DNA of 64,000 nucleotides from Escherichia coli (lineage in GTDB: Bacteria > Pseudomonadota > Gammaproteobacteria > Enterobacterales > Enterobacteriaceae), in the NCBI RefSeq assembly GCF_003334785.1, contig NZ_QOWV01000002.1. One strand, 5' to 3'. Each line of letters opens with the position of its first letter. Within the stretch, counting starts at the first letter, position 1. Below the pieces are notes generated by a model. It was not told the origin of the DNA. It made no database searches and saw nothing but the letters and a program-made list of their open reading frames with translations. Positions 61,311 to 62,681 of this stretch are shown piece after piece. A program made the translations under genes and the position numbers.

Positions 61311-62681
61311 ATGTCGAGTTTAACCTGCTTTAAAGCCTATGATATTCGCGGGAAATTAGGCGAAGAACTGAATGAAGATATCGCCTGGCGTATTGGGCGT
61401 GCCTATGGCGAATTTCTCAAACCGAAAACCATTGTGTTAGGCGGTGACGTCCGCCTCACCAGCGAAACCTTAAAACTGGCGCTGGCGAGAGGTTTACAGG
61501 ATGCGGGCGTCGATGTGCTGGATATCGGCATGTCCGGCACCGAAGAGATCTATTTCGCCACGTTCCATCTCGGCGTGGATGGCGGCATCGAAGTTACCGC
61601 CAGCCATAATCCGATGGATTATAACGGCATGAAGCTGGTTCGCGAGGGGGCTCGCCCGATCAGCGGAGATACCGGACTGCGCGACGTCCAGCGTCTGGCT
61701 GAAGCCAACGACTTTCCTCCCGTCGATGAAACCAAACGCGGTCGCTATCAGCAAATCAACCTGCGTGACGCTTACGTTGATCACCTGTTCGGTTATATCA
61801 ATGTCAAAAACCTCACGCCGCTCAAGCTGGTGATCAACTCCGGGAACGGCGCAGCGGGTCCGGTGGTGGACGCTATCGAAGCCCGCTTTAAAGCCCTCGG
61901 CGCACCTGTGGAATTGATCAAAGTGCACAACACGCCGGACGGCAATTTCCCCAACGGTATTCCTAACCCGCTGCTGCCGGAATGTCGCGACGACACCCGC
62001 AATGCGGTCATCAAACACGGCGCGGATATGGGCATTGCCTTTGATGGCGATTTTGACCGCTGTTTTCTGTTTGACGAAAAAGGGCAGTTTATCGAGGGCT
62101 ACTACATTGTCGGCCTGCTGGCAGAAGCGTTCCTCGAAAAAAATCCCGGCGCGAAGATCATCCACGATCCACGTCTCTCCTGGAACACCGTTGATGTGGT
62201 GACTGCCGCAGGTGGCACGCCGGTAATGTCGAAAACCGGACACGCCTTTATTAAAGAACGTATGCGCAAGGAGGACGCCATCTACGGTGGCGAAATGAGC
62301 GCCCACCATTACTTCCGTGATTTCGCTTACTGCGACAGCGGCATGATCCCGTGGCTGCTGGTCGCCGAACTGGTGTGCCTGAAAGAGAAAACGCTGGGCG
62401 AACTGGTACGCGACCGGATGGCGGCGTTTCCGGCAAGCGGTGAGATCAACAGCAAACTGGCGCAACCCGTTGAGGCGATTAACCGCGTGGAACAGCATTT
62501 TAGCCGTGAGGCGCTGGCGGTGGATCGCACCGATGGCATCAGCATGACCTTTGCCGACTGGCGCTTTAACCTGCGCTCCTCCAACACCGAACCGGTGGTG
62601 CGCCTGAATGTGGAATCGCGCGGTGATGTGCCGCTGATGGAAGAAAAGACAAAACTTATCCTTGCGTTATTGAACAAGTAA
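61311..62681 (+). CDS. manB: Phosphomannomutase (O-antigen copy)
   Basis: 456 aa; nearly identical at the DNA level to cpsG except at the extreme 5' and 3' ends. Confidence 0.9.

Follow-up and report, generated by a model that had tools for sequence, protein, structure and literature searches.

A 685-bp identity block shared by manB and cpsG in an Escherichia coli O6 sequence is probably an assembly collapse

The O-antigen gene manB and the colanic-acid gene cpsG read identically over 685 bp in the window (the whole stretch of 64,000 nucleotides that was analyzed). This block very probably represents an assembly collapse of two similar gene copies and would not be present in the organism. The window contains the colanic-acid cluster, galF, the O6 O-antigen cluster (wzx, wzy, glycosyltransferases, galE, manC, and manB), and the start of gnd. 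It belongs to an E. coli O6 strain that is clonal with VE-F10 (NZ_AP027946.1), and it was the comparison with the genomes of this clone that revealed which bases of the two genes had changed.

Features of the manB and cpsG loci in the window, with the basis of each assignment
Feature	Position	Strand	Basis or remark
cpsG, colanic-acid phosphomannomutase, upstream repeat copy	42022..43392	+	ORF; RefSeq annotation of clonal VE-F10
Identity block, cpsG copy, 685 bp	42412..43096	+	Carries 15 non-native bases of manB type
Left unit	42546..42696	+	10 sites, window cpsG has the manB allele, including T195A; bubble edge length 228 at k=77
Middle unit	62066 (cpsG homologue 42777)	+	1 site, window manB has the cpsG allele T
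Right unit	42882..42984	+	5 sites, window cpsG has the manB allele; native in E4FP_1
Interval between the direct repeats, wcaJ to manC	43393..61310	+	Would be lost by a manB x cpsG crossover
Low-GC O6 O-antigen genes wzx, wzy, glycosyltransferases, galE, manC	51924..61228	+	O6 wzx/wzy annotation, 154 genomes
manB, O6 O-antigen phosphomannomutase, downstream repeat copy	61311..62681	+	NCBIfam PRK15414, 1050 bits
O6-specific first codons of manB (MSS)	61311..61319	+	5' limit of homology with cpsG
5' flank of the cpsG-like core of manB	61320..61700	+	94.9% to cpsG; unchanged versus clonal genomes
Identity block, manB copy, 685 bp	61701..62385	+	Equals the clone's native manB except T at 62066
3' flank of the cpsG-like core of manB	62386..62643	+	96.9% to cpsG; unchanged versus clonal genomes
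Low-GC tail of manB and manB-gnd spacer	62644..62844	+	Fixed 3' limit of homology with cpsG

We aligned manB (61311–62681) with cpsG (42022–43392) without gaps at an offset of 19289 and counted 49 mismatches over 1371 bp. A mismatch-free run of 685 bp extends from 61701 to 62385 and is flanked by mismatches at 61700 and 62386, as had been described from the sequence alone, where 61701–62385 and 42412–43096 were read as free of differences. When 27 core mismatches were permuted over third codon positions only, a run of 685 bp was reached in 0 of 200,000 permutations. As the sequence is given, the block is present and lies far beyond chance, and at 685 bp it is far longer than the overall divergence of the two paralogs predicts, as would be looked for in a conversion tract. 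The adjoining segments, previously estimated at ∼95–98% identity, measure 94.9% on the 5' side (61331–61700) and 96.9% on the 3' side (62386–62640). Both gene ends differ, again as first described: the first three codons encode MSS in manB and MKK in cpsG, the last 12 codons are unrelated, and the last 41 bp of the gene are 58.5% identical, the manB part having a GC content of 29%. Outside the gene, identity falls to ∼25%, which is the random level.

Each of the two genes also contains an antisense ORF of 334 codons (42205–43209 in cpsG and 61494–62498 in manB, both on the minus strand). The sequence-only reading had taken these ORFs to be identical and to lie at a constant offset; the offset is indeed constant, but the ORFs differ at 18 sites. 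They are mechanical by-products of the two genes, and nothing hints at genes in their own right.

We compared the window with VE-F10 in three parts. Positions 1–24000 match perfectly, positions 24001–41310 contain 3 differing sites, and positions 41311–64000 contain 17 differences, namely 15 in cpsG, 1 in manB, and 1 unrelated SNP (46174). Outside the block, the two sequences are separated by 4 scattered SNPs in ∼62 kb, whereas 15 of the 17 differences in the third part are packed into 439 bp of cpsG (42546–42984), all with the manB base in the window. The single change in manB lies at 62066 (homologous to cpsG 42777), where the window carries T, the cpsG allele, and the clonal genomes carry C. 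All 16 sites that distinguish the paralogs between 61700 and 62386 (gene positions 525, 537, 564, 567, 583, 594, 597, 627, 669, 675, 756, 861, 876, 903, 909, and 963) are therefore homogenized in the window, 15 of them in cpsG and 1 in manB, in opposite directions. At the protein level, the only consequence for CpsG is T195A relative to the native CpsG of the clone. In the same comparison of close relatives, a small cluster of six differences in 25 bp (26335–26359) separates the window from NCTC9087, to which it is otherwise near-identical across the colanic-acid region.

The native state of the two genes is well documented within the clone. The scores of cpsG and manB are identical in the 7 RefSeq complete clonal genomes; both genes are native base by base in VE-F10, PEC399, and OZ121069, cpsG is native in JKHS016, and more than 10 further contigs are native as well. 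NCTC9087 (O87), which shares the backbone and is devoid of manB, has a native cpsG identical to that of the clone. The block is absent from all 7 RefSeq complete clonal genomes and, with at least 8 clonal genomes considered, is private to the window sequence; independent assemblies of the lineage that resolve the repeat (the 7 complete genomes, NCTC9087, and the more than 10 contigs) do not reproduce it. The 43 core differences of the native pair show an even distribution, in which no identical run exceeds 134 bp (permutation P=0.32). Uniform divergence across the gene, which had been named beforehand as the outcome that would speak against a conversion block, is thus not found in the window with its 685-bp run but is found in the other genomes of the clone. 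The block is a private, derived state that arose mainly through changes in cpsG.

These comparisons bear directly on the initial interpretation, a recent conversion of manB by cpsG that covers the block and has its junctions near 61320 and 62620. The identity block and the cpsG-like GC content of manB agree with such an event. Within the block, however, it is cpsG that carries the changes (15, clustered), and manB equals the native manB except at one base. In addition, the window cpsG carries alleles, T at gene positions 564 and 675 among them, that are confined to O6 manB in the four O6 genomes compared. The proposed 3' junction, together with the tail and the manB–gnd spacer, is common to the manB genes of O6, O7, and O11, and it is therefore old. 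The direction from cpsG to manB is contradicted by the clonal genomes, and a conversion of this kind is highly improbable.

A further idea, in which cpsG acquired its block from another strain through homologous recombination and agrees with manB only by coincidence, is more improbable still. The CpsG protein of the window is very common (10,918 blocks), but the 10 further cpsG alleles with the same protein that were read each show 16–25 differences in the block, so that 0 of 10 match there. No cpsG more than 98.9% identical to that of the window was found among 5,426 complete E. coli genomes, and the imported segment would have to equal the resident manB at every site. The window sequence was likewise not found among the 5,426 RefSeq complete genomes, and an exact 171-nt stretch of the window cpsG gave 0 matches in representative genomes. 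The sole metagenome contig matching the 171-nt stretch, OGMX01001373.1, was rejected as a further example: it carries a different manB-like allele, 95.7% identical, and the pattern of the stretch is accordingly not specific. On this contig, positions 1603–2934 and 7787–9005 hold the manB/cpsG-like gene at 95.7% to that of the window and a gnd gene at 94%, and it probably derives from another Escherichia lineage or O-antigen cluster.

Assembly collapse, the reading we favor, accounts for the changes in both copies. Near-identical repeats are known to collapse by bulge or bubble removal in SPAdes and in graph-based hybrid assembly, and polishing with short reads cannot repair them. For 150-bp reads, SPAdes by default uses k=21,33,55,77, limits the length of a bulge to max(3k, k+100), and applies a relative coverage of 1.1. 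A de Bruijn-graph assembler would treat the differences between manB and cpsG as bubbles. At k of ∼77, the 16 differences, lying between long shared runs, would give three closed bubbles, all within the length that bulge removal accepts. Each bubble would collapse onto one branch, and the merged edge would then serve both copies at repeat resolution. Differences in the flanks would survive, since runs of fewer than k shared bases tie them to unique sequence.

The native pair has the arrangement that this scheme calls for. Its sites fall into three groups (61835–61985, 62066, and 62171–62273 in manB coordinates), with shared runs of 134, 80, 104, and 112 bp between and around them, whereas the flank differences are linked to the unique gene ends by shared runs of at most 71 bp. 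We swept k from 21 to 127 on the native manB/cpsG pair, using the length-limit rule given above, which was fixed before any assembler was known. Only k=77 and k=79 return exactly the 16 homogenized sites and none of the 27 retained ones. The three units of the window follow manB, cpsG, and manB, respectively, with the same choice in both copies, as if each bubble had been resolved in its own direction. The homogenized sites thus match the bubbles at k=77–79, and we infer that an assembler of this type produced the window sequence. If so, at the 16 sites the true cpsG would read TTCTAGCCTC-T-GTCCA and the true manB CCTCGATGGT-C-ACTGG, whereas a real block would give CCTCGATGGT-T-ACTGG in both copies.

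Other assemblies of the clone show the same units in other combinations. A look-up of the CpsB protein specific to the clone, with a short flank, gave a single further non-native cpsG, that of E4FP_1 (GCA_027278895.1). When its cpsG copy was read, the left unit was of manB type, the middle site was T, and the right unit was native. E4FP_1 was produced by hybrid assembly with SPAdes v3.15.4 at default parameters from 150-bp Illumina reads and 13x ONT coverage (PMC10190287), which is the very assembly condition (SPAdes, 150-bp reads) that the k sweep had singled out. Collapse of the left unit in the other direction predicts an O6 ManB with A195T, and this variant is present in exactly two contigs. 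The manB copy of the draft GCA_021416255.1 has cpsG alleles at the same 16 sites between native flanks, and a k141_ contig (MEGAHIT naming style) with ManB A195T is another, different mosaic. A literature search returned no paper for GCA_021416255.1 or ERZ27307585.

The window and E4FP_1 share the state of the left unit, yet this state was not inherited from a common ancestor, because the SNP 46174A, found in the window and in JKHS016 but not in E4FP_1, groups the window with JKHS016, whose cpsG is native. The same units occur in different directions in graph-based assemblies of one clone (in cpsG of E4FP_1 and in manB of GCA_021416255.1) and only in such assemblies, never in the 7 complete clonal genomes, as collapse predicts and biology does not.

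A real and very recent homogenization within the chromosome would be the main biological alternative. It would require that manB gave 15 sites to cpsG in a tract of 439–685 bp and that site 62066/42777 went the opposite way, either by patchy repair of a heteroduplex or in two successive events. The block is highly non-random, recombination between manB and cpsG is documented, and a lineage-specific exchange is seen in E. coli W. Moreover, the two ends of the block fall within identical runs of 134 and 112 bp, the longest that the native pair has, as would be expected of an exchange; the boundaries alone do not discriminate between the two explanations, since the endpoints of real recombination also favor the longest identical runs. 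We nevertheless consider such a homogenization unlikely. Both copies have changed, with 15 sites in cpsG and 1 internal site in manB converted in opposite ways, whereas bacterial gene conversion is normally one-directional and contiguous, with one recipient. The state is seen in a single sequence out of at least 8 clonal genomes, and either patchy repair or two events would have to fit within a branch of ∼2–4 SNPs per 64 kb. The same units stand in other combinations in further graph-based assemblies, including one for which SPAdes and 150-bp reads are documented, the state common to the window and E4FP_1 conflicts with SNP 46174, and the homogenized set equals the bubbles at k=77–79 exactly. 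Very-short-patch repair was considered for position 62066 and rejected on inspection, as the site is not the inner C of a CCWGG motif. Were the block real, the O-antigen manB would have been the main donor and would have overwritten 15 sites of the chromosomal cpsG. This would be a snapshot of concerted evolution in progress and a mildly interesting reversal of donor and recipient, in which the “foreign” copy rewrites the “native” one.

In all, the block most likely is what short-read assemblers produce when they merge similar copies. It resembles a de Bruijn collapse in that one merged sequence stands in both copies, the direction changes from bubble to bubble, differences chained to the flanks are kept, and different assemblies of one clone hold different combinations; it differs from a documented case in that the assembler of the window is deduced. 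As biology, the block adds little, and its practical value is one of caution. Such a collapse can pass for a recent gene conversion with sharp boundaries. Pairs of paralogs of ∼96% identity may be silently homogenized by graph assemblers at k=77, including in hybrid “near-complete” assemblies, and anyone who screens public assemblies for gene conversion or for recombination breakpoints should examine reads or clonal relatives before calling an event.

We also considered EcN_Sk (NZ_CP172017.1), labeled as an isolate of Nissle 1917, as a second example, given that its manB equals its cpsG over 1300 bp. It was rejected for its 866 mismatches in 41 kb against the Nissle reference and its frameshifted genes. 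In the extracted locus (manB at 20001–21371 and cpsG at 333–1703), wzx and wzy are frameshifted and genes are fused. All other Nissle assemblies have a manB of the ATCC 25922 type, and the EcN_Sk assembly is probably flawed or chimeric.

Apart from the block, manB is a mosaic, as had been recognized from the sequence alone, with a core of cpsG type and host-like GC between cluster-specific termini; it is the recent conversion that does not hold. The GC content is 55% in manB, 31% in the O6-specific genes, and 38% in manC. The adjacent manC, described earlier as low in GC and strongly diverged from cpsB, shares 65% nucleotide identity with it. A core with host-like GC and at least 95% identity to cpsG, a surrounding low-GC cluster, and a diverged manC together identify the gene as a cpsG-type O-antigen manB. 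The O6 cluster is present in 154 complete E. coli genomes, and a second cpsG-like copy exists in about a fifth of cpsG-bearing genomes (5,714 places in 4,678 genomes).

Comparison of O6, O7 (REL606), and O11 (PCN033) indicates that homology to cpsG stops at fixed points, the termini of manB. All three share the low-GC tail and the manB–gnd spacer, whereas the 5' codons are serogroup-specific (MSS in O6, the cpsG-type MKK in O11, and a shorter start in O7). The apparent junctions near 61320 and 62620–62640 are such fixed limits and not recent breakpoints. The O6 manB belongs to a family of gnd-proximal O-antigen manB genes with a core (approximately codons 4–444) of cpsG type. This core, of host-like GC and 95–97% identical to the resident cpsG, lies between short cluster-specific termini within a low-GC, horizontally acquired cluster. 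The presence of a cpsG-type core in a low-GC cluster supports an old replacement by, or exchange with, cpsG. The O7 manB of REL606 (E. coli B; extracted locus, 1934–5539) is 1365 nt long, has a shorter 5' start (MLT...), and matches the cpsG of the same strain at 95.8% over 1323 bp. In this strain, manC has an IS1 element immediately upstream.

The cores of O6 manB genes differ at 19–65 sites between lineages in which other O6 genes are 98.5–99.9% identical. Compared with the cpsG of the same genome, manB shows 33–47 core differences in well-supported assemblies, with longest identical runs of 134–220 bp. Over longer times, the two genes do exchange sequence: in E. coli W, manB equals its own cpsG over gene positions 1114–1333, including W-specific alleles of cpsG. 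In the O6 manB of E. coli W (gene positions 876–1179), a run of alleles is common with the manB of PCN033 (O11) and missing in the O6 manB of VE-F10, a pattern that suggests recombination between strains, with the crossover falling within manB, as O-antigen clusters are transferred. Because the manB of W matches its own cpsG in one part and also, in part, an O11 manB, manB has been shaped by both intragenomic exchange and recombination between strains.

The existence of a cpsG-like manB, its exchange with cpsG, and the deletions driven by the two repeats are real and already published. In O157, manB was replaced by the colanic-acid gene, and its divergence was put down to gene conversion, according to those passages of Iguchi et al. 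2011 (PMC3158064) that relate the work of Samuel et al. 2004. The same passages describe an O157 manB that, like the one in the window, has over 95% identity to the resident cpsG and a GC content atypical for its cluster, and whose variation between strains exceeds that of the other O-antigen genes around it. The present case differs in its serogroup, O6, and in the perfect block of 685 bp, which lies outside that real pattern. We found no paper on a cpsG-type replacement of manB for O6 specifically, the literature search not having been directed at O6. In Salmonella, the paralogs tufA and tufB undergo concerted evolution by RecA-dependent gene conversion. A review of the subject by Santoyo and Romero (2005) is listed among the references of PMC3715488. 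As in tufA and tufB, dispersed paralogs kept similar by non-reciprocal exchange offer a plausible model for the long-term similarity of manB and cpsG. The tracts in tufA and tufB, however, are contiguous, one-directional, and inherited, whereas the block in the window is two-directional and private.

Within the window, manB and cpsG have the same orientation and high identity. The suggestion that these long direct repeats could mediate loss of the wcaJ-to-O-antigen interval agrees with deletion products that the literature documents for other strains, in the long-term evolution experiment (LTEE) and in O14. Seven deletions by recombination between manB and cpsG, at 96% identity, were described for E. 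coli B in the LTEE (Raeside et al. 2014, PMC4173774). The O14 type strain has lost its O-antigen cluster, apparently by recombination between the same genes (Liu et al. 2019, PMC7685785), a deletion for which PMC7685785 cites Jensen and Reeves 2004. These cases and the window have the same two genes in the same orientation, ∼19–23 kb apart and ∼96% identical, and a crossover takes out the wcaJ-to-O-antigen interval; unlike them, the window is without deletion or duplication. As a substrate for recombination, the window is no better than other strains, because the longest identical run of the native pair is 134 bp and not 685 bp.

Three further rearrangements were observed around these genes. 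In the locus extracted from CP170296.1 (1–3071), an IS1 transposase comes after wcaM, with the O6-type manB and gnd directly behind it, and IS1 appears to have caused the loss of the O6 genes upstream of manB. Around the cpsG start in CP128440.1, cpsG breaks off after codon 54 and continues into an inverted segment (cysG-nirC-nirD-nirB), which looks like a large rearrangement with a breakpoint inside cpsG. In the O6 strain 2017-02-2CC (NZ_AP027764.1, 1–2524), IS421 interrupts the colanic-acid cpsB just upstream of cpsG.
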